DNA of 38,224 nt from a virus (Duplodnaviria; Heunggongvirae; Uroviricota; Caudoviricetes): positions 1 to 38,224 of IMG/VR virus record IMGVR_UViG_2541047899_000010; one strand, given 5' to 3'. The notes under the pieces are model-generated. The model made no database searches, was not told where the DNA came from, and was given only the letters and a program-made list of their open reading frames with translations. This document shows, in pieces, positions 736 through 12,199 of the stretch. Made by a program: the position numbers and the translations under genes. Position 1 is the first letter of the stretch. Every line of letters starts with the position of its first letter.

Positions 736-1134
736 TCAGATTCCCTCCCAAACTATATATCCTTTGTCTCTTGCCCAACAAACAACTGTGTGGGCTGTAT
801 ATGTGGATGTGAAGCCGCAATAAGAACATGACACTTCATACCGAGTATTGTAGATGTTAATGGGCTCGTTCTCCTTGTGTATGGGAGTGACATATTCCCA
901 ATCATTTGAATCATCATAATCATCAAGTTCAGGGTCTGTGCCGTGAACAACCGTATGTGGAATAAACAAATCTGGGCGCCCACACGAGAGACAAGAGGTT
1001 CTGGCTCCTCTATCTTTAAGGAATTGAATAAATAATTTGGGCGAAATCTGTTGCAGAACCTGCAAATGCCCACGTTCATTATCATTAAGAGACCTGTCTG
1101 CATATGGAAAATCATCAAATTTAAGAGGCTTCAT
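736..1134 (-). CDS. Hypothetical Cys-rich protein (putative zinc ribbon), cargo gene downstream of int
   Basis: ORF 736..1149. ATG at 1134 preferred because GGAG lies 9 nt upstream; this start overlaps the int 3' end by 14 nt. CLSCG and CSYCG cysteine pairs. Its stop at 736..738 directly abuts the GTG at 735 of the next gene. No recognisable family. Confidence 0.5.
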   Translation of the reverse strand: MKPLKFDDFPYADRSLNDNERGHLQVLQQISPKLFIQFLKDRGARTSCLSCGRPDLFIPHTVVHGTDPELDDYDDSNDWEYVTPIHKENEPINIYNTRYEVSCSYCGFTSTYTAHTVVCWARDKGYIVWEGI

Positions 1135-2113
1135 ATAAGGCATCTCCAAGGGGATTAAATCTCACCGCATCCTGCAGGTAATCCGGCGCAAGATGGGCAT
1201 AAATCATCGTTGTCTGAATCTTTGCGTGCCCCAGAATTTTCTGGAGCGTCAGAATATTGCCGCCGTTCATCATGAAATGACTGGCGAAGGTGTGGCGCAG
1301 CGCATGAACAGCCTGGCCGTCAGGAACATCAGGTGCGACCGTTTTGATGACATCGCGAACCAATGGATAATCCAGCGTCGGAAACACCAGTTTCCCGCCC
1401 CGTTTTTTGATCTTTTCAAACAGGCTTTCAGAAATAGGAACGGTACGGTTTTTGCTGTTCTTCGTTTTTGAAAAAGTGATTCGACAATGAAGAACACGGC
1501 GCTGCTCCAGTGCCGCTACCTCGCCCCATCGCGCCCCGGTCGACAGAAGGATTTCGACAGCCAGCCGTTCATCGGGATTTTCAGCCAGTGCATCCAGCAA
1601 CTGAACACATTCAGACTTACTCAGATATCCCATTTCGCGCTCGTTAACCTTCATTCCTTTAAGGCCTTGAACGGGGTTATCGTTAAGAAAATGGCCGGAT
1701 GAGATGAGTGCGGTAAACATCGCGCTTAACGCCCCAATCTCTCGATTTATGGTGCTGGGCTGTATCCCCTGCTCTATCCTGGACACACGTAGCTCGGTGA
1801 GCATCGTTGTATTAAGTTTATGCACGCACGGGTCATCCATTGCCTCACTCAAGCGCAGCAATTTAAGGCGCGTGTTATGCCCTGACTTCATTAGCTGGCC
1901 GTGGTATTTCCACCACAAGTCAATAAGCACTGACAGCGGACGGCGATCAATGGAGTTTCCTTTCCACTCATTGTTATGCTGTTGCGCCAGCACCCACCGC
2001 TCATATAAAACTGCATCCGATTTCGTTTTAAATTTTTTGCGAATGCGTTTGCCTTTACGCCCCTCCGGGCGCATGTCAAGAAGATACCCTCCCGGAATTG
2101 ATTTTATGCTCAT
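1121..2113 (-). CDS. int: Tyrosine site-specific integrase (P2 Int-like)
   Basis: 330 aa from ATG at 2113 (MSIKSIPGGY...). C-terminal catalytic signature HALRHTFASHFMMNGGNILTLQKILGHAKIQTTMIYAHL with the R, H-x-x-R and Y residues of tyrosine recombinases. The upstream part of the 380-aa ORF has no support. Confidence 0.9.
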   Translation of the reverse strand: MSIKSIPGGYLLDMRPEGRKGKRIRKKFKTKSDAVLYERWVLAQQHNNEWKGNSIDRRPLSVLIDLWWKYHGQLMKSGHNTRLKLLRLSEAMDDPCVHKLNTTMLTELRVSRIEQGIQPSTINREIGALSAMFTALISSGHFLNDNPVQGLKGMKVNEREMGYLSKSECVQLLDALAENPDERLAVEILLSTGARWGEVAALEQRRVLHCRITFSKTKNSKNRTVPISESLFEKIKKRGGKLVFPTLDYPLVRDVIKTVAPDVPDGQAVHALRHTFASHFMMNGGNILTLQKILGHAKIQTTMIYAHLAPDYLQDAVRFNPLGDALYEAS

Positions 2114-2162
2114 TCGTGAAACCCCAGCGTTACAAGACCACCATGCCCCCAGCGCTCCATGA

Positions 2163-2474
2163 TTAGCCGGGCTGTGTGCCAGTCTTGCGGGGTTTTTGAG
2201 AAGGCGATGTGCTTTTTGGCCCATCAGGGGAGAGAGACGGACTGATCTGCCCAGCAGCCTCATTTGTTTCGTTACTCATCAACCACGTGGTGTATTTTTT
2301 AAAGTTCGGATGCATTGTGATTTTCAGTAAAACCTCCGTCCCCACACCTCTAATACCAGTCTCATATTGCTTAACTGTACCAACCGCAATACCTATTGAA
2401 TCCGCGAACTTTGCCTGGCTAAGTCCCTCAGATTCTCGAATTGCTTTTAGCTTCTTTGATATCTCTATTGACAT
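2163..2474 (-). CDS. C: P2 C-type immunity repressor (HTH)
   Basis: 103 aa from ATG at 2474 (MSIEISKKLKAIRESEGLSQAKFADSIG...). Length and sequence recalled as similar to P2 C, including the C-terminal ...KYTTWLMSNETNEAAGQISP... segment. Sits upstream of int on the same strand as in P2. Confidence 0.85.
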   Translation of the reverse strand: MSIEISKKLKAIRESEGLSQAKFADSIGIAVGTVKQYETGIRGVGTEVLLKITMHPNFKKYTTWLMSNETNEAAGQISPSLSPDGPKSTSPSQKPRKTGTQPG

Positions 2475-4585: not shown

Positions 4586-4848
4586 CCATTCTGGACTACA
4601 TCGCTACTCATCCGGGTTGTAGCGGCGGAGAGATCGCCGCAGCACTGAATACTCCAACCACAGCCATTAATGCTGAGTTACGCCAACTTTGGCGCGGCGG
4701 CTTAGTCATCAGAACAAACCGCAGCACAGGTGGTCGCGCTCGCAAAACTGGAGGCCAGGCTTCTTACCACGTAAACCCGATGCCGTTCGGGTGTAGCAAT
4801 CCACTTACTCACATGTTTAACCAGCTACTGAAGGAAGCCAGAACATGA
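4582..4848 (+). CDS. Putative winged-helix DNA-binding protein
   Basis: 88 aa; start overlaps the previous stop (ATGA). Segment GCSGGEIAAALNTPTTAINAELRQLWRGGLV looks like a wHTH recognition region (inference). Confidence 0.45.
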   Translation: MTILDYIATHPGCSGGEIAAALNTPTTAINAELRQLWRGGLVIRTNRSTGGRARKTGGQASYHVNPMPFGCSNPLTHMFNQLLKEART

Positions 4849-5144
4849 GCACCATCAACCACCAGAAGCTACGCGAACTGGCATTTTCCCTGCAACGAAT
4901 GGCAACGCCTCAAAAATTACTGGCGTTTCGCGCAATGCTCTCGCCGTCTGCTGTGCTGGCACTGCTGGATGAGCAGGAGCACGCCAGAACCACGGCTCCT
5001 GCCATTCGCCTGACGCTCCATCATGAAATCGCTGATTTCTGCGCAACGCTGGGGGCACCTGGCGAACCGGAAACGCCGGAAGCAATGCAGCAAGAGCTGC
5101 TGCAACGCATTGACAAGGTTTTTGATTTTTTTCTGAACCAGTAA
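4845..5144 (+). CDS. Hypothetical early protein
   Basis: 99 aa; start overlaps the previous stop (ATGA). Confidence 0.45.
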   Translation: MSTINHQKLRELAFSLQRMATPQKLLAFRAMLSPSAVLALLDEQEHARTTAPAIRLTLHHEIADFCATLGAPGEPETPEAMQQELLQRIDKVFDFFLNQ

Positions 5145-5266
5145 GAAACCAGAACATGCACACACAAAAAAACCGCTTGCCATGCCGCAATCGGTCAGGT
5201 TACATTTCCGCTGCACCTCATAAAACGGGTGCCGGGATTCTCAACCCGATACAGAGCAAAGCGCAT

Positions 5267-5290
5267 AACCGCGCCAGCGGTTTTTTTGTG
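5267..5290 (+). terminator. Candidate intrinsic terminator inside the early-operon non-coding gap
   Basis: aaccgc-gcca-gcggtt hairpin followed by ttttttt. Confidence 0.45.
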
Positions 5291-5299
5291 CGTACTGTA

Positions 5300-5328
5300 T
5301 TGCCACGTCTTTTTCGCGTCAGAATTAT
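5300..5328 (+). promoter_or_regulatory. Candidate sigma70-like promoter downstream of the internal terminator
   Basis: ttgcca, 17-bp spacer, aattat. The -10 is weak. Confidence 0.3.
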
Positions 5329-5466
5329 GGCGGGGCGTACGGGGCCGACTTCGGTCGGGCCGGATTCTTTGCTCTCCGGTGTTGAGAACCCTGTACGTCT
5401 CGCCACCCCGAGATTCTCAACTCTGGATGGTGAGCTATTTCTATCACCGAGCAAAGAGGCCACACC

Positions 5467-5697
5467 ATGGCAAACCGCAAACAACAGCGCGCATACGCTG
5501 CGCGTCGTCACATCCAGACTGAAATCAACCGCAGACTTTCCCGCGCATCACGCGTCGCGCAAATCATGCACATCAATATGCTGCATGAGCGCAGCCACGC
5601 ACTATCAAACATTTATTCCGCCTCTGTTTTCAGCTATCTGGCGGATGATCTGCACGAGCTTCAACAGCTCATCCAGCAGCAAAACAAACTCCATTAA
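5467..5697 (+). CDS. Hypothetical early protein
   Basis: 76-aa ORF with AGAGG upstream of the ATG. Confidence 0.45.
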   Translation: MANRKQQRAYAARRHIQTEINRRLSRASRVAQIMHINMLHERSHALSNIYSASVFSYLADDLHELQQLIQQQNKLH

Positions 5698-5769
5698 TTC
5701 CTGTTCCGGGCCTTTCCTGCACCTTGCGGCGGGAGGCCTTCGCACATCTGTAGTAAAGAGAATTGCAGC

Positions 5770-6159
5770 ATGATTGACGCTCATGACTTCACAAGATGGG
5801 TGCGCACACAGGACACCCGTCTGGCTCCCGTTCTTCAGGGATTATTTGATCTCTACATCCGTGGTCGTGACAACAGAGCACGCACCACAAAACCAGAGAA
5901 TGCAGACACCCTTTATTTCACAGTAGACGACTGCTACCGCGTGGACTTCACACCACACGGGCTGGCGTTGCACTGCCTGACACCACACGGCGAATCACTA
6001 CTGGCGTATTACGACTCCCCGGCCTCCGTATTTGCGGCAATGCTGGCGCATCGCACTGCTGGCGGGTGTGCCTCGCTGAGTGAATACACCGCTGAATTTA
6101 ACCGCCTTTCCACCCTCTTCTCGCAGGAGTGGCAGCGCGTGACGGGATACCAGCCATGA
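5770..6159 (+). CDS. Hypothetical early protein, translationally coupled to gene A
   Basis: 129 aa; its stop overlaps the gene A start (ATGA at 6156). Confidence 0.5.
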   Translation: MIDAHDFTRWVRTQDTRLAPVLQGLFDLYIRGRDNRARTTKPENADTLYFTVDDCYRVDFTPHGLALHCLTPHGESLLAYYDSPASVFAAMLAHRTAGGCASLSEYTAEFNRLSTLFSQEWQRVTGYQP

Positions 6160-8996
6160 GTGAGTTTGCATGGAGCTGGAATGAACCACGGCCAGCCATT
6201 GATCCAGCCAGATTTACGGAGCACAGGCAGGAAACTGAAACCGACCTGCAACGCGCCATCCGTTACTACCTTGAGGCGGACAAAAGGGCACAGAAAGAAC
6301 AGGAAGCGAAGGAAGAAGCCTTTTTCGCACAATCCGCCATGGGTAAAAAACTCATGGCATCCCTTGAGGAAGCCGGACAGCGTGAAAAGCTGGCACAGAG
6401 CATCATCAGTAAGCGCCGGGCAACAGAACAAGACCCGGTAGCCCGTGCCTTTGCCACACTGAAGGCGCTTCCCGTTTATCTGCGAGAACCTCTGAGCCGC
6501 CACCTCTCTTTCCTGCGCAAGAAGCAGGAAGCCGATCGTCAGAAAGGCAAAAAGAGCTGGCAGGCGGAACGCTATGCACGCGGAACCCTGCGCAAAATAT
6601 TCGAACGTCTGGACCGCACCGACAGCCGCTGGCTGACACCGGGTTATCGCTCCCTTGCCGGACGCGAACGCCTGGACGATTTACTTTACCTGCCGCAGCT
6701 CAACAAACACCAGATACAGACGCTGGCCACCATGACGGCGGCGATGTTCAGCAGCACCTTCGAAAAACTCTGCGATGGCTTTGGCGCGACTGATGGCGAA
6801 CTGACCATGGATGTAACGCTGAAGGCGTATCAGATGCTGGCCCGCATGGCGTTACACCTGCACGCCATGCCTCCACATTATGACGCACTGACAACAGACA
6901 AAGACCGGAGGAACGAACCGGACACGGAGCTGCTGCCGGGCGCAATCCTTCGCCTGACTTGTGCGGAATGGTGGAAACGCAAACTGTGGCTGTTACGTTG
7001 CGAGTGGAGAGAAGAACAACTCCGCGCCGCCTGTCTGGTTTCCAGAAAAACATCACCCTATCTGAGCCAGGACGCGTTAAGCGAGTTTCGCGCACAGCGC
7101 GAGAAAACACGCGATTTCCTGAAAAGTTTCATGCTGGAAAATGAAGACGGGTTCACGATTGATCTCGAGACGGTGTATTACGCGGGAGTAAGTAACCCGG
7201 TTCACCGTAAGGCAGAAATGATGTCCACCATGAAGGGACTGGAACTTCTGGCCGAAGCCCGTGGCGACAGAGCGGTGTTTCTGACTGTCACCTGCCCGTC
7301 AAAATACCACGCAACAACGGAGAACGGTCATCCGAACCCCAAATGGAACGGGGCCACCATGCGCGACTCCAGCGATTACCTGGTTAACACGTTTTTTGCG
7401 GCGGTCCGCAAAAAACTGAACCGCGACGGTCTGCGTTGGTATGGCATCCGCACGGTGGAGCCTCACCATGACGGCACTGTGCACTGGCATATGATGGTCT
7501 TTGCACATCCGGACGAGATTGAAACCATCGTGTCCCACGTCTGCGATATTGCCATTCAGGAAGACCGCCACGAGCTGGGCGATGACATAACTCCGCGTTT
7601 TAAGGCAGAGTACGTAGACGGCTCAAAAGGCACACCAACCAGCTACATCGCCACCTACATCGGAAAGAACCTGGACAGCCGCGCCGTGGATGGCATCGAC
7701 CCGAAAACGGGCAAGCCACGCGTTGACCACGAAACCGGAAAATCAATGGCCGAGAGCGTGGAACGCGCCATCGGCTGGGCGCGCCTTCACCGGGTCCGCC
7801 AGTTCCAGTTCTTTGGTATCCCCTCCCGTCAGGTGTGGCGTGAACTGCGCCGCCTTGCCAGCCAGATGGCACGCAACCCGGAAGGCCCGCAACGGCTGAA
7901 GGATGACGCAATGGACGCGGTACTCGCTGCCGCTGATGCCGGATGTTTTGCCACCTACATTGAGAAACAGGGTGGCGTACTTGTTCCACGCAAAGACTAC
8001 CTGATTCGCACCGCCTACGACCTCGCAGATGAGCTGAACGATTACGGTGAACAGAGCGTACAGATTTACGGGATCTGGTCGCCGCTCATTGGGGAGTCTT
8101 CCCGCGTATGCACGCATCCGGATAACTGGAAGCTGGTAAGACGCAAACCGGAAGCGGAAGACAGCGCCCGCGAAAATGGTTTTGACCTTCAGGGCGGCCC
8201 TGCCGCCCCTTGGACTCGTGGCAATAACTGTCCCCGTGTACAGGAAACGGACAACAACGGGACAGAACAGCCGGAAGAACGGCCAGCACCGTGGCCGCAG
8301 CTCCCTGACGGCGTTGAAGTGAACGAATGGATGCGCTCACTGAAACGGCACGAACGCCGGGCGCTGATGCGTTCGCTTCGTGACAAACAGGCAAAAAACA
8401 GCAGTGATGAAATGCAGAGCTGGACACAGAGCCGCAAACAGCAGCGGCCTTTGCCTGATAACCACGAATTACTCGCTAAAGAATGGCGGGAGTCTGCTGA
8501 ATCTCTCGGCCTGCATATCGGTGAACAACAGATGCAGCACCTGTTACGGGGCGGCAGTCTGTACGTTGACGGCAGCATCATTGCACCGCAGGGATTTGAA
8601 ATTGTACGCAAACCGGATACCCGCCCGGACAGCCGAATCACGCAGCTCTGGCAGCGCCTGAGCCGTAATCACGGCGTAAGCAGCACGGAGATCCGCCATA
8701 ACCCGGTCGCCAGCTATCTGGCACAGCTGGGGGCATCAGACCCTGAAGCCGCCGCACGCCTGGCATCCACACTTCAGCAGGACCAGAACACCATGAAAAC
8801 CCCCGTTACCGTGCTTTCTGACATGCTGCGCGCCATCCGCGACGCAGAGCACGCACAGAGAATCAGTGAAACCACTGAACGCGCCCGCCGCAAAGCAGAC
8901 CTGCTGCGGAGTGGCCTGACCAGTGGAAACAAAAAACAGACAGAAACGGGACTCACGAATCCCGTAAATGAGCAAAAAACGCGCCGCGATATATGA
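6156..8996 (+). CDS. A: Rolling-circle replication initiator and nicking endonuclease (P2 gpA-like)
   Basis: 946 aa from ATG at 6156. Rep motifs HWHMMVF (HUH-type) and YIATYIGKN (catalytic Tyr), recalled as conserved in P2 A and the phiX174 A family. Longer than P2 A at the C-terminus. Confidence 0.9.
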   Translation: MSEFAWSWNEPRPAIDPARFTEHRQETETDLQRAIRYYLEADKRAQKEQEAKEEAFFAQSAMGKKLMASLEEAGQREKLAQSIISKRRATEQDPVARAFATLKALPVYLREPLSRHLSFLRKKQEADRQKGKKSWQAERYARGTLRKIFERLDRTDSRWLTPGYRSLAGRERLDDLLYLPQLNKHQIQTLATMTAAMFSSTFEKLCDGFGATDGELTMDVTLKAYQMLARMALHLHAMPPHYDALTTDKDRRNEPDTELLPGAILRLTCAEWWKRKLWLLRCEWREEQLRAACLVSRKTSPYLSQDALSEFRAQREKTRDFLKSFMLENEDGFTIDLETVYYAGVSNPVHRKAEMMSTMKGLELLAEARGDRAVFLTVTCPSKYHATTENGHPNPKWNGATMRDSSDYLVNTFFAAVRKKLNRDGLRWYGIRTVEPHHDGTVHWHMMVFAHPDEIETIVSHVCDIAIQEDRHELGDDITPRFKAEYVDGSKGTPTSYIATYIGKNLDSRAVDGIDPKTGKPRVDHETGKSMAESVERAIGWARLHRVRQFQFFGIPSRQVWRELRRLASQMARNPEGPQRLKDDAMDAVLAAADAGCFATYIEKQGGVLVPRKDYLIRTAYDLADELNDYGEQSVQIYGIWSPLIGESSRVCTHPDNWKLVRRKPEAEDSARENGFDLQGGPAAPWTRGNNCPRVQETDNNGTEQPEERPAPWPQLPDGVEVNEWMRSLKRHERRALMRSLRDKQAKNSSDEMQSWTQSRKQQRPLPDNHELLAKEWRESAESLGLHIGEQQMQHLLRGGSLYVDGSIIAPQGFEIVRKPDTRPDSRITQLWQRLSRNHGVSSTEIRHNPVASYLAQLGASDPEAAARLASTLQQDQNTMKTPVTVLSDMLRAIRDAEHAQRISETTERARRKADLLRSGLTSGNKKQTETGLTNPVNEQKTRRDI

Positions 8997-9072: not shown

Positions 9073-10032
9073 ATGAAAATTTGTATCGACGACGGCTCCA
9101 CCAACATCAAGCTGGCATGGACTGAGAACGGCGAACGCCGCAACGCCATCAGCCCGAACAGCTTCAAGTCGGAATGGTCTGCGCCGTTCGGTGGCACGCA
9201 GCCCGCGAACTACATGCTTGATGGCGTGCGCTATGGTTTTGATCCGGTCAGCGATCGCTTTGTCCAGACGACCGACACGCAATACCAATACAGCGATGTG
9301 AATGTCATTGCCATTCATCACGCGCTGGTCAAATCAGGCATCACGCCACAGGAGGTGGATGTGGTTGTCACCCTGCCACTGAGCGAGTATTTCGACACAA
9401 ACGCACAGCCGGACATGGCCAACATCAACCGCAAAAAAGCGAACGTTATGCGCCCGGTGGAGTACCAGAACGGCGAAGCATTCACTATCCGTAACGTGCG
9501 GGTTATGCCTGAATCCATTCCGGCTGGCTTTAAGGCACTGGCTGACATGAGTCCGTTTGAATCCCTGCTGATTGTGGATTTGGGCGGAACCACGCTGGAT
9601 GTGGCAAAGGTTCAGGGGCAACTGGCAGGTATCAGCCAGGTGTTTTGCGATCCACACGTAGGCGTTTCTCTGATGGCCGATGCCGTACTGTCGGTGATGG
9701 CCACTAACGGTATGCGCACCAGTCACCACATCGCCAATACCATTATCGAACATCGCCATGATGAAGCCTGGCTGCGCCAGCACATCCACAATGACGCGCA
9801 TTACGACAGCCTGATGGCGGTTATTCGTGAAAAGGAAGAAACACTGAAACAACGAGTGATCCGCGCGCTGGCGGGTTTTTCGGGTTACGGGCGGGTGATG
9901 GTTGTCGGTGGAGGGGCGGAGATTGTGGCACCCGCTATCCGCGAAGCCTGCGGAGTTAATGCGACTTTCATCGCGGACGGGGTGCCACAGTTTGCTCTGG
10001 TCAATGGTTTGTACGCAATGGACAAGGAGTAA
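9073..10032 (+). CDS. parM: ParM/StbA-family actin-like segregation ATPase
   Basis: 319 aa. N-terminus MKICIDDGSTNIKLAW and later YSDVNVIAIHHAL, VDLGGTT and VVGGGA motifs recalled as matching plasmid R1 ParM (actin fold). AAGGAAAA upstream of the ATG. Confidence 0.8.
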   Translation: MKICIDDGSTNIKLAWTENGERRNAISPNSFKSEWSAPFGGTQPANYMLDGVRYGFDPVSDRFVQTTDTQYQYSDVNVIAIHHALVKSGITPQEVDVVVTLPLSEYFDTNAQPDMANINRKKANVMRPVEYQNGEAFTIRNVRVMPESIPAGFKALADMSPFESLLIVDLGGTTLDVAKVQGQLAGISQVFCDPHVGVSLMADAVLSVMATNGMRTSHHIANTIIEHRHDEAWLRQHIHNDAHYDSLMAVIREKEETLKQRVIRALAGFSGYGRVMVVGGGAEIVAPAIREACGVNATFIADGVPQFALVNGLYAMDKE

Positions 10033-10478: not shown

Positions 10479-10997
10479 TTATAAAAAATAATCATCATGA
10501 GAGGAAACATGAAAATTATAATCTCTCAATTGGGGGATAATCCCTCTACTCCAAAGCAACGTTTTATTTAGTCCAAGTCCATCTAATTTCATCATCCTGT
10601 TGCGCAGCGCAATGAATTCATTCTTGAAGTTATCTGCAGAGATGATCTTTGGGCAAAAACAAGAATACAACTTTCTATTACTTACACCACAAGCATTGGC
10701 AAGCTCATCCTCAAAATTGCTTGTTTGTTGAAATAGGTGGATTGTGTGTTTTTTCGCCTTTAATAGATTGAGATTATTCTTAAATCTATCAAGATTCTCA
10801 ATCCTATCCGTATCAAAAACCACTATGATTTCGCTATTTTCGGTTAATGCTGGCATGTATTTATTTATATTAACATTCCATAAATTAGCAATTACTATTT
10901 TCTTAATAGGATAGCCTAGCAATGTTTTGAAATCCTGAAACAATGCTTTTTCCGTATCTCCCTCAACAAGAATAATAGCAAATTTCTTAACTGCCAT
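10479..10997 (-). CDS. Small Toprim-like protein (DUF4276/RloB-like), putative nuclease partner of the ATPase
   Basis: 172 aa from ATG at 10997, 2 nt after the ATPase stop and preceded by GAGGA. N-terminal ILVEGDTE (conserved Glu) and VVFDTDR (DxD) fit a Toprim-like fold. Locus is markedly AT-rich. Confidence 0.6.
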   Translation of the reverse strand: MAVKKFAIILVEGDTEKALFQDFKTLLGYPIKKIVIANLWNVNINKYMPALTENSEIIVVFDTDRIENLDRFKNNLNLLKAKKHTIHLFQQTSNFEDELANACGVSNRKLYSCFCPKIISADNFKNEFIALRNRMMKLDGLGLNKTLLWSRGIIPQLRDYNFHVSSHDDYFL

Positions 10998-10999
10998 AA

Positions 11000-12199
11000 T
11001 CAATCCTCAAATAGCATCTCTTCGATTAATGAAACGTCAGGTATTGTAGCAAAACAGTCATTTTTTACTTTATTTAAAAGATTGCGATCATTCTTTTTAT
11101 GATGTGTGGTAGCTTCAACAAAAGTGGTTACACCATCTACTTTTTTAGTAAAAGTATATGAATGCGTAGGCAGATCTAAGCTCAAGATATCATAATTATG
11201 TGTGGTGTATATAAATTGACCATATCTGCAAAGCTTAGATATAATCAGCGTGACCATCATTTTTTCTAATTCAGTATGAGTGAAGGCCATTTTCTCATCC
11301 AAAAAGTACACCCCACTGCAAGGGAAATTGAACTCTCGCTCTTCTATTTTATCTTCAAGCACTCCTGACAGGAGATGGGATATTTTTACTGCCTCATAAG
11401 TACCACGAGACAGTCTATCTTTATTTGTTATATCACCTTCCATATCAATAATAACTCTATCTCCATTATTGAAGACTACTGAATAACCCTGCAAATCCTC
11501 CTTTCCCTCATCATCTTTAAGAGTGAGTCCTGAGACAGATTTAACAGTATTGTCAAAGGTTTTTAATATGCTATTAAGCACATTCTTCTTAATTCGTGAT
11601 ATTTTATCCGTGTTCTCTTGGTTTTCAGATAGAATGAAATGCCAACCAAGAACAAAGTCCAAATCCTCTAAATATTGGGAAAATTCTTTTGAGTTAGCGT
11701 TTTCGGTTGAAAAAAATCTATTTTGACCATTTAATTCAAACTTTTGCGCATCCCACACAGCATCCAATCTTTTGGTCGTCTTTGCGCATGATTCCGAGCT
11801 TCTTAAATCAACAGATGCCATTGCAATTTTTTCTACAGCAACAGACTCATCCATAGCCCTAAGCCAGACACCTGCCCTAAACAAACATTTTAAATGACTC
11901 TGGAAAAAGTCAACCTCTATATATGCAGGTTTTCTTTTGTCAGTAATTTTTAACGGTTCTGGATTGAAAACACCACTACTGAGAAAACGCAACACAGAAA
12001 GCATCACGCGACCAAGAGATGTTTTACCAGATGCATTAGCACCAGAAACGATGCAAACCTTTTTGAAGTAGAACTTTTCAAATCCATCAATGTACTCACC
12101 TTCCAGTGAGCTGTTGATCGGGGGTCTGGAGAAGCTTAAGTCAAGGATGCTATTTTCAAAGCAAAACAGATTATCGATTCTGATTTTTGTAAAAGCCAT
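11000..12199 (-). CDS. ABC-type ATPase (AAA_15/AAA_21-like) of a candidate anti-phage module
   Basis: 399 aa. Walker A GANASGKTS, Walker B VYFLDE, H-loop TTHN, with a long helical insert between A and B as in OLD, AriA and AbiL-type ATPases. AAGGTGG upstream of the ATG. AT-rich. Confidence 0.75.
   Translation of the reverse strand: MAFTKIRIDNLFCFENSILDLSFSRPPINSSLEGEYIDGFEKFYFKKVCIVSGANASGKTSLGRVMLSVLRFLSSGVFNPEPLKITDKRKPAYIEVDFFQSHLKCLFRAGVWLRAMDESVAVEKIAMASVDLRSSESCAKTTKRLDAVWDAQKFELNGQNRFFSTENANSKEFSQYLEDLDFVLGWHFILSENQENTDKISRIKKNVLNSILKTFDNTVKSVSGLTLKDDEGKEDLQGYSVVFNNGDRVIIDMEGDITNKDRLSRGTYEAVKISHLLSGVLEDKIEEREFNFPCSGVYFLDEKMAFTHTELEKMMVTLIISKLCRYGQFIYTTHNYDILSLDLPTHSYTFTKKVDGVTTFVEATTHHKKNDRNLLNKVKNDCFATIPDVSLIEEMLFED

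Follow-up and report, generated by a model that had tools for sequence, protein, structure and literature searches.

The satellite phage P4 encodes epsilon, an anti-repressor that binds the C repressor of phage P2, downstream of an immunity region made of small RNAs. The RNA families concerned (IsrK and C4), the two-box antisense mechanism and the occurrence in P1, P7, P4, N15 and lambdoid prophages are already established (PMC3632133, PMC4825925, PMC10111431, PMC12197685). In this work, we analyzed a stretch of viral DNA of 38,224 nucleotides (nt) (IMG/VR virus record IMGVR_UViG_2541047899_000010, positions 1 to 38,224, called the window hereafter), which is a complete E. coli prophage belonging to the P88 / Xuanwuvirus type of P2-like phages. 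Within its early operon, the interval 5145-5466 had been picked out from the letters alone as a structured non-coding gap (the original prediction). Very probably, this gap holds a secondary immunity module that works through RNAs of the IsrK/C4 type and has P4 seqA-CI-seqC and P1/P7 immI as homologues. In the literature, we found no description of the module in Xuanwuvirus / Peduoviridae (P2-like) phages.

The closest described systems

In P4, the two RNAs are named the seqA leader and the CI immunity RNA (PMC3632133, PMC10111431), and the immunity region has the order PLE - seqA - CI RNA - seqC - kil/eta - epsilon - orf151 - alpha. In P1 and P7, immI is arranged as P51 - a1 b1 - c4 - a2 b2 - icd - ant, where the P1 record annotates P51a/b and a 77-nt c4 RNA, whose mechanism has been described (PMC12197685). 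The third system is the isrK - orf45 (STnc1160) - anrP region of Gifsy-1 in Salmonella, in which the short IsrK ends at its own terminator and a read-through isoform exists as well (PMC4825925). In the published model of Gifsy-1, IsrK acts as a trans-activator, and no role as a C4 repressor is assigned to STnc1160. It turned out that the orf45/STnc1160 segment 3' of IsrK is a C4 homologue: the isrK match in Gifsy-1 scores 79 bits and is followed by a C4 match of 69 bits. Besides, coliphage 186 is a P2-family phage which, like the window, has its own anti-repressor gene (tum) outside the Pe/Pc switch, giving it an induction route that P2 itself does not have. Unlike the module described here, tum is under LexA transcriptional control, and the two are unrelated in sequence.

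Two small-RNA genes in the early-operon gap

We scanned the whole window against the Rfam covariance models at gathering thresholds and got exactly two matches, isrK and C4, both of which lie inside the gap, between an Ead/Ea22-like open reading frame (ORF) at 4845-5144 and a 76-codon ORF at 5467-5697. The isrK match (RF01394, 5213-5287) reaches 62.8 bits against a cut-off of 50 (E-value 2.8e-11), and the match to the C4 antisense RNA (RF01695, 5323-5410) reaches 78.5 bits against a cut-off of 45 (E-value 6.6e-14); both are full-length. The same order and spacing of isrK and C4 is found in P4, P1 and Gifsy-1, whose leaders match the same or a sister Rfam model. For example, C4 of P1 scores 68.8 bits and its leader matches c4-a1b1 (RF03163) and, weakly, isrK.

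The structures agree with the families as well (Table 1). The isrK match shows the family architecture of two hairpins followed by a Rho-independent terminator, and the minimum-energy fold of C4 (5328-5405, -47 kcal/mol) reproduces the family consensus with a long closing stem, two hairpins, an exposed loop and an exposed junction. The ends of the mature C4 were placed from the P1 record, whose C4 begins at model position 7 and ends 2 nt past position 82. For processing by RNase P, the visible sequence prerequisites are the closing stem and the GCCACC tail at the 3' end. The segment 5213-5480 folds much better than shuffled sequence (z = -4.4).

The original prediction had taken the gap for a small RNA or an attenuator between the early genes and the replication genes, and had pointed to an intrinsic terminator (5267..5290) and a GC-rich hairpin with a UUCG loop. 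All the features listed were found again, no more than a few bases from the positions first given. The terminator is present, with its stem at 5267-5282 and seven T at 5281-5287, and the UUCG hairpin (5345-5358) is hairpin 1 of C4. The proposal of a small RNA and/or attenuator is borne out by the two Rfam families, by the covarying boxes described below and by the last of these boxes, which lies on the Shine-Dalgarno sequence of the gene upstream of gene A. The family identities of the RNAs, a further box at 5449-5457 (b2) and the epsilon-type anti-repressor encoded by the next ORF had been missed.

Table 1. Coordinates of the RNA module, its recognition boxes and the associated genes in the window
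Feature	Coordinates	Strand	Remarks
IsrK-type leader small RNA (P4 'seqA' region, P1 a1/b1 leader)	5213-5287	+	Rfam RF01394
IsrK hairpin 1	5213-5232	+	
IsrK hairpin 2	5233-5248	+	presents box a1, mostly in the loop
IsrK single-stranded linker		+	holds box b1 (5253-5261)
IsrK intrinsic terminator	5267-5287	+	stem 5267-5282, seven T at 5281-5287
C4-type antisense RNA, inferred mature span	~5329-5407	+	
C4 outer acceptor-like stem	5328-5344 with 5389-5405	+	
C4 hairpin 1	5345-5358	+	UUCG loop (CCGAC-UUCG-GUCGG)
C4 hairpin 2	5359-5380	+	12-nt loop 5364-5375 carries box b'
C4 single-stranded junction	5381-5388	+	core of box a'
C4 3' tail ACC		+	GCCACC tail at the 3' end
Box a1	5235-5245	+	in IsrK hairpin 2
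Box b1	5253-5261	+	AGAGCAAAG
Box b'	5366-5375	+	loop of C4 hairpin 2; 5367-5375 is CTTTGCTCT
Box a'	5381-5391	+	C4 junction; GTTGAGAACC
Box a2	5412-5421	+	begins a few bases past the C4 3' end
Box b2	5449-5457	+	GAGCAAAGA; overlaps Shine-Dalgarno AAGAGG (5454-5459) of ATG 5467; ends 9 nt before the ATG
Downstream target region (P4 'seqC')	5412-5457	+	a2, small hairpin 5429-5448, b2
Epsilon-like 'derepression' gene, 76 amino acids	5467-5697	+	first gene after b2; presumed direct translational target of C4
Internal sigma-70 promoter candidate	5177-5206	+	-35 TTGCCA 5177-5182, 18-nt spacer, -10 TACATT 5201-5206 (promoter scan)
Inverted repeat, 21 nt, 19/21 complementary	arms 5160-5180 and 5273-5293		flanks the IsrK gene
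Spanning open frame, 205 codons	5156-5773	+	spans promoter, IsrK, C4 and epsilon-like gene; candidate analogue of P4 eta / Gifsy-1 orf45
orf129	5770-6159	+	3' of the epsilon-like gene, 5' of gene A
Replication gene A	ATG 6156, end 8996	+	Pfam Phage_GPA, E-value 2.9e-129
Integrase	1121-2263	-	
P2-C-type repressor, 103 amino acids	2163-2474	-	39% identity to P2 C
Early operon	begins 2570	+	

Recognition boxes and their covariation

The boxes are named after those in the P1 record. As first noticed, GATTCTCAAC occurs in exact direct copies at 5236 and 5412, for which the chance expectation in the window is 0.13. The inverted copy proposed at 5381 is present as GTTGAGAACC, but it is complementary over only 8 contiguous bases (TTCTCAAC), after which one mismatch follows. 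The second pairing, between CTTTGCTCT (5367-5375) and AGAGCAAAG (5253-5261), is present, and the GAGCAAAG box has a third copy at 5449-5457, on the ribosome-binding site of the next gene. In total, the exposed segments of C4 are complementary to two upstream boxes (a1, b1) and two downstream boxes (a2, b2). The long-range helix expected from these repeats is better read as trans or alternative pairing of C4 with two target regions than as one static fold.

To see how far the pairings are kept, we scanned viral contigs with a C4-core pattern and got more than 100 loci with 69 distinct combinations of loop and junction. The boxes of the same locus match by at least 7 nt at fixed positions in 54-65 of the 69 combinations, compared with 4-7% for the controls with loops from other loci. 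For the P88-like class, 22 sequences (21 distinct) were aligned, and the boxes covary over these 21 distinct relatives. Between the C4 loops and a2/b2, 95.8% of the cells are paired and 10 of 18 pairs have changed on both sides; none of 500 shuffles equalled this, and sliding the partner by 1-3 columns lowered the paired share to 39-47%. Between the C4 loops and a1/b1, the paired share is 96.5% with 11 of 19 pairs changed on both sides (0 of 500 shuffles equal; 30-56% paired after sliding). Thus, the box pairings are kept by compensatory changes over many specificity variants. The duplex energies were also compared with mononucleotide shuffles of the targets. For three of the four loop-target pairs, only 2-10 of 500 shuffles were as good; for the duplex of a' with the a2 region, 105 of 500 were.

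The covarying pairs include G.U cells, and the constraint therefore acts on RNA and not on DNA. This bears on the last proposal of the original prediction, a cluster of protein binding sites, in which the repeats would be DNA sites of an operator or iteron type. The locus does have several short repeats, both direct and inverted, and CACAAAAA occurs in C-operator-like repeats (2523, 2533) as well as in both arms of the inverted repeat 5160/5293. However, the boxes diversify freely while their complementarity to the C4 loops is kept, as reverse complements and with G.U wobbles that are meaningless in DNA. Besides, no k-mer of at least 9 nt is common to the module and the Pe/Pc switch, and no LexA box lies nearby. 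A binding-site cluster is thus scarcely credible here, and pairing at the RNA level is the reading that we keep.

The a and b boxes reassort independently, giving at least 13 specificity combinations in the P88-like lineage. This is the pattern expected under diversifying selection for heteroimmunity, and individual boxes are common to P88-like and other classes. One could then suppose that the same module serves mainly in conflict between mobile elements, through cross-immunity against P4-like satellites or P88-like phages with the same boxes or through a trans-acting anti-repressor against other P2-type prophages, and that control of the phage's own lysogeny is secondary. An anti-satellite role was proposed for IsrK-C4 in lambdoid prophages by Barquist et al. 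(PMC3632133), and trans-acting anti-repressors are known in Gifsy phages (PMC3121763). On the other hand, no identical a' plus b' combination was found between a P88-like phage and a P4-like element in our sample, and the module lies in cis, ahead of the phage's own replication gene. We regard conflict as the main role as unlikely.

The small hairpin between a2 and b2 (5429-5448) is conserved in position and variable in sequence, with GGTGA...TCACC in the window and GTGAGTTTT/AAAACTTAC in others. In P4-like loci, a hairpin is also found at the site between a2 and b2.

An epsilon-like gene behind the last box

The 76-amino-acid protein encoded directly after b2 matches the Pfam family Derepression (PF25738) with 32.9 bits against a cut-off of 27, a family defined by P4 epsilon, which itself scores 170 bits (E-value 9e-51). 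By BLASTP, the two proteins share 33% identity over 51 amino acids (E-value 1e-9). According to literature cited in PMC8628076, P4 epsilon is the anti-repressor that binds P2 C. We found isrK and C4 immediately upstream of every epsilon-like homologue examined (P88, Shae_phiSM, about 20 viral contigs and three species-representative genomes). The cargo is noteworthy: the phage's own epsilon-type anti-repressor, presumably under direct C4 control, lies upstream of the replication gene.

Downstream of this gene, the frames are linked by ATGA overlaps, one between the stop of the frame 5156-5773 and the start of orf129 (5770-5773) and one between the stop of orf129 and the start of gene A (6156-6159). 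Through this chain, translation of the C4 region may be coupled to that of the replication gene, and orf129 and gene A are presumed to be controlled by polarity or by translational coupling. Between 5480 and 5720, the sequence is rich in C and poor in G (C/G 1.5-2.2), as a region for Rho loading should be.

The resemblance to P4 is extensive: the isrK and C4 matches in the same order, the two-box pairing on both sides of the antisense RNA, and an epsilon-family gene downstream, followed by the replication gene of the element. Unlike P4, the window has no Icd-like kil, and the epsilon homologue (76 against 95 amino acids) takes the slot of kil, at +126 from the C4 core compared with +124. The replication gene is of the P2-type GpA instead of the alpha primase, and the box sequences differ. 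The geometry of P1, in which a2 starts 4 nt past C4 and b2 ends 10 nt before icd, is nearly the same as that of the window. As in P1, an antisense RNA that masks the ribosome-binding site of the first gene would control an anti-repressor alongside a protein repressor (bipartite immunity). The window differs from P1 in that the anti-repressor is of the epsilon type and not Ant, there is no Icd-like leader ORF, and the replication gene follows in the same transcription unit. As in Gifsy-1, the Shine-Dalgarno sequence of the anti-repressor gene follows the last box, although Gifsy-1 is a lambdoid prophage and its anti-repressor belongs to another family.

Several other proteins were looked for in this region. 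The Icd-like model NF033153, which matches both P1 Icd and P4 Kil, gave no match in the 76-amino-acid protein, orf129 or the spanning ORF, and profile searches found no Ant or KilAC domain. A homology of orf129 to P4 orf151 was also considered and none was found. Two C4 modules occur on the IMG/VR contig L074, with P88-like spacing in one and P4-like spacing in the other, and the latter has an 85-amino-acid epsilon-family protein, not Kil, directly after b2. The cargo slot of the module is evidently exchangeable.

The promoter and the flanking inverted repeat

For the promoter of the module, two candidates were compared. The site proposed at first (5300-5328) exists with 9 of 12 matches, but it is probably not the relevant one. 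Its start, about 7 nt downstream, falls inside the closing stem of C4, and it therefore cannot yield a complete C4; relatives differ in its -35 hexamer, and the P1 record shows no promoter at that place. Its '-10' is the AAUUAU leader of C4, which is conserved in P1 and Gifsy-1, where the precursor is known or presumed to be processed, while the P4 leader differs. We thus rejected it as the promoter of C4. The better candidate is 5177-5206, with a predicted start at G5213, where the isrK model begins. All the P88-like variants retain both hexamers and the distance between them, even those with a differing spacer sequence (L030, L069, L074), and the site is the positional equivalent of P4 PLE, P1 P51 and the isrK promoter of Gifsy-1.

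A simpler account would make the gap an operon boundary only, with a terminator for the upstream early genes and a promoter that restarts the replication genes, and no antisense regulation. Terminator-like and promoter-like sites are indeed present. However, the favored promoter lies upstream of the terminator and not downstream, 5300-5328 would start inside the C4 stem with a -35 hexamer that varies among relatives, and the six covarying boxes, the three-way structure of C4 and the family matches would be left unexplained. We consider a mere boundary highly improbable compared with an antisense module. Control of the module by LexA or by C-repressor operators was rejected too, since no LexA-like box was found in the gap and the k-mer comparison with the Pe/Pc switch (at least 9 nt) detected no repressor operator at the module promoter, unlike in P1.

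The IsrK gene is flanked by an inverted repeat (5160/5293). Its 5' arm is an A7-CCGC element directly upstream of the -35 hexamer, and its 3' arm is the 3' half of the IsrK terminator with the U-tract. In a transcript coming from upstream (5145-5296), the minimum-energy fold uses this helix and not the terminator hairpin (z = -4.75). A 14-bp core of the repeat is conserved in P88-like relatives, and no covariation is seen because the 3' arm never varies. The repeat may be a UP-element, an RNase III or processing helix, or a structure specific to upstream-derived transcripts, and a UP-element is as plausible as the last of these. An antiterminator was rejected: the helix is thermodynamically favored, but what the 5' arm would compete for is the terminator's 3' half, leaving the 5' half of the terminator unsequestered. 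The C-operator-like direct repeats of the Pe/Pc switch (2523 and 2533) which share CACAAAAA with both arms read GCCACAAA.

The spanning reading frame

The original prediction saw no credible ORF in the gap, which was too strong, as the gap is crossed by the frame 5156-5773, which relatives also keep open. The frame starts with an ATG 12 nt past the stop of the upstream ORF and upstream of the internal transcription start, and the AUG conserved at the 5' end of C4 (5327) is in frame with it. The first AUG of Gifsy-1 orf45 is this same conserved AUG, in the same frame, and in both Gifsy-1 and the window the stop of the ORF overlaps the start of the downstream gene as ATGA. The difference is that the ORF ends at the anti-repressor start in Gifsy-1 and runs through the epsilon-like gene to orf129 in the window. 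Likewise, P4 eta has the same register relative to C4, starts upstream of the internal promoter and stays open across the RNAs.

Where the spanning frame overlaps the epsilon-like gene, 18 variants with differences at up to 58 of 231 nt all lack a stop in it. L083 and L110 have compensating +1 and +2 indels in this frame, and the differences in isrK-to-C4 spacing between classes are all multiples of 3. The tests of stop avoidance are only suggestive (P = 0.008-0.08 with resampled codons, 0.18-0.49 with permuted codons). In the variants L025 and L083, the spanning frame runs in-frame into the next gene without a stop.

Could the region be mainly protein-coding, with an Ash/Eta-like product of 5156-5773, so that the RNA matches would simply follow from conservation of the coding sequence? 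Almost every P88-like and P4-like relative keeps the frame open, and one phage record labels the region 'similar to ash family protein'. The translation has a weak match to Pfam Phage_ASH (PF10554, E-value 0.002) and matches PHROG 995, 821 and 6928 ('transcriptional regulator/repressor') down to 1e-15. However, the Phage_ASH match is below the family cut-off, the predicted product is of low complexity, and for two thirds of its length it reads the epsilon-like gene in another frame. Of the 76 residues in the overlap, substitutions alter 34 in the spanning frame, which is more than the 26 altered in the epsilon frame. What varies are compensatory pairs between distant boxes with G.U, which a constraint on protein does not predict. 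In P4, the eta frame and the RNAs coexist, so an open frame is no argument against RNAs. A mainly coding region is thus very unlikely. What Phage_ASH and several PHROG 'regulator' families describe is for the most part the isrK-C4 RNA region in translation, so that these protein families are at least partly shadows of the RNA genes. A similarity between the spanning ORF and the P4 Eta protein was considered and set aside, as it is marginal and confined to the RNA-coding stretches.

Translation of eta in P4 and of orf45 in Gifsy-1 is reported to override termination or to be needed for expression of the downstream gene (PMC10111431, PMC4825925). From these reports and the conserved open frame, we lean slightly towards the view that translation of the spanning frame would let Pe-derived transcripts reach gene A in spite of the terminator and C4.

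Proposed mechanism

The scheme below takes the RNA genes, boxes, covariation, ribosome-binding-site overlap and identity of the downstream gene from the results above, and its steps are modelled on P1, P4 and Gifsy-1. A constitutive internal promoter (5177-5206) would start transcription at 5213. Most transcripts would end at the IsrK terminator and give a 75-nt small RNA, and the read-through transcripts would carry C4, which may be excised as a tRNA-like substrate, with RNase P making the 5' end and the 3' end being trimmed. C4 would then pair with a2 and b2 on the read-through mRNA (b':b2 and a':a2), so that the ribosome-binding site is occluded and the epsilon-like gene stays untranslated. 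The untranslated C-rich RNA would be subject to Rho-dependent termination, and no epsilon-like protein, orf129 or A would come from 5177-5206 in the lysogen. Since IsrK carries boxes a1 and b1, it would have to interact with C4, and this leader with the same boxes may compete for C4 or cooperate with it. If this block by C4 were lifted, the prophage would be induced through inactivation of its P2-C-type repressor by the epsilon-like protein. Pe transcripts probably escape C4 control, as ribosomes would translate the frame 5156-5773, ATGA-linked to orf129, and then A, and such an escape would mirror eta in P4 and orf45 in Gifsy-1.

Several points weigh against this scheme. The sign of the IsrK effect differs between the two studied systems: the leader is a site of co-repression in P4, while IsrK activates in trans in Gifsy-1. 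The Icd-like leader gene of P1 and P4 is absent here, and the control logic may differ. The essential gene A lies 3' of an intrinsic terminator, so read-through from Pe must be efficient, and the statistics for rescue by the spanning frame are only suggestive. The RNA ends, the promoter, the RNase P step and the Rho dependence are all inferred, and the action of the epsilon-like protein on the phage's own C repressor is predicted.

A wider picture is possible, though doubtful as a whole. P88-type phages would have a two-layer immunity, in which a P2-C repressor stands atop an RNA switch of the P4/P1 type, and this switch would directly control the epsilon-type anti-repressor of the phage itself and, via the overlaps, the replication gene. 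The balance of IsrK and C4 would be the trigger of an SOS-independent induction, and the same RNAs could mediate cross-immunity or cross-induction between helper and satellite. The latter is conceivable because the reassorting a/b boxes form a single pool that supplies both helper-type phages and P4-like satellites.

Distribution and annotation

To learn how widespread the module is, we searched complete E. coli genomes and found it in about 22% of them (1,178 of 5,426). In the RefSeq E. coli records examined, nothing is annotated at the module. No isrK/C4 module was found in P2 and 186, which were examined as well. A scan of genome contigs for taxonomic breadth gave three loci only, from Salmonella enterica, E. 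albertii and a 'Vagococcus' assembly. The last of them (L128, NZ_JBQPOM010000071.1, 'Vagococcus sp. WN89Y', a Firmicute assembly) has a 93%-identical epsilon-like gene with isrK and C4 upstream, and is most likely an enterobacterial contamination of the assembly. In the GenBank record of P88 (L001, KP063541), a minus-strand 'hypothetical protein' coding sequence (AIZ95121.1, 5033-5221) is annotated over isrK (5028-5102) and C4 (5138-5225), which is probably spurious.

Recognition of the module explains the conspicuous early-operon 'gap' in P2-like phages. It links a helper-type P2-like phage to the immunity system and the anti-repressor (epsilon) of the satellite P4, and suggests how P88-type prophages could be derepressed, though P2, the prototype for their P2-C-type repressor family, is non-inducible. 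Besides, the covarying specificity variants are a ready natural set of orthogonal antisense/target pairs.

Genomic setting of the module

The late region of the window is about 95% identical to those of Xuanwuvirus P884B11 and Citrobacter phage Shae_phiSM. Unlike the P4 satellite, the window is a full P2-like phage with late region, GpA and ParM. The latter is a full-length ParM/StbA actin-like partition protein encoded directly 3' of A (9073-10032, plus strand; Pfam StbA_N, E-value 1.8e-82), an unusual cargo in an integrating P2-like phage, and it is labelled 'recombinase' in the P88 record. Within gene A, there is a perfect LexA-box-like sequence, CTGTCCCCGTGTACAG (8228-8243), probably a chance match. 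In the variable hotspot 3' of the ParM gene, two adjoining genes on the minus strand (10479-12199) resemble an AbiL-type defence pair. One encodes an AAA ATPase of 399 amino acids that matches PADLOC AbiLi (E-value 3e-27), and the other encodes a TOPRIM-like protein of 174 amino acids with weak matches to AbiLii and GajA.

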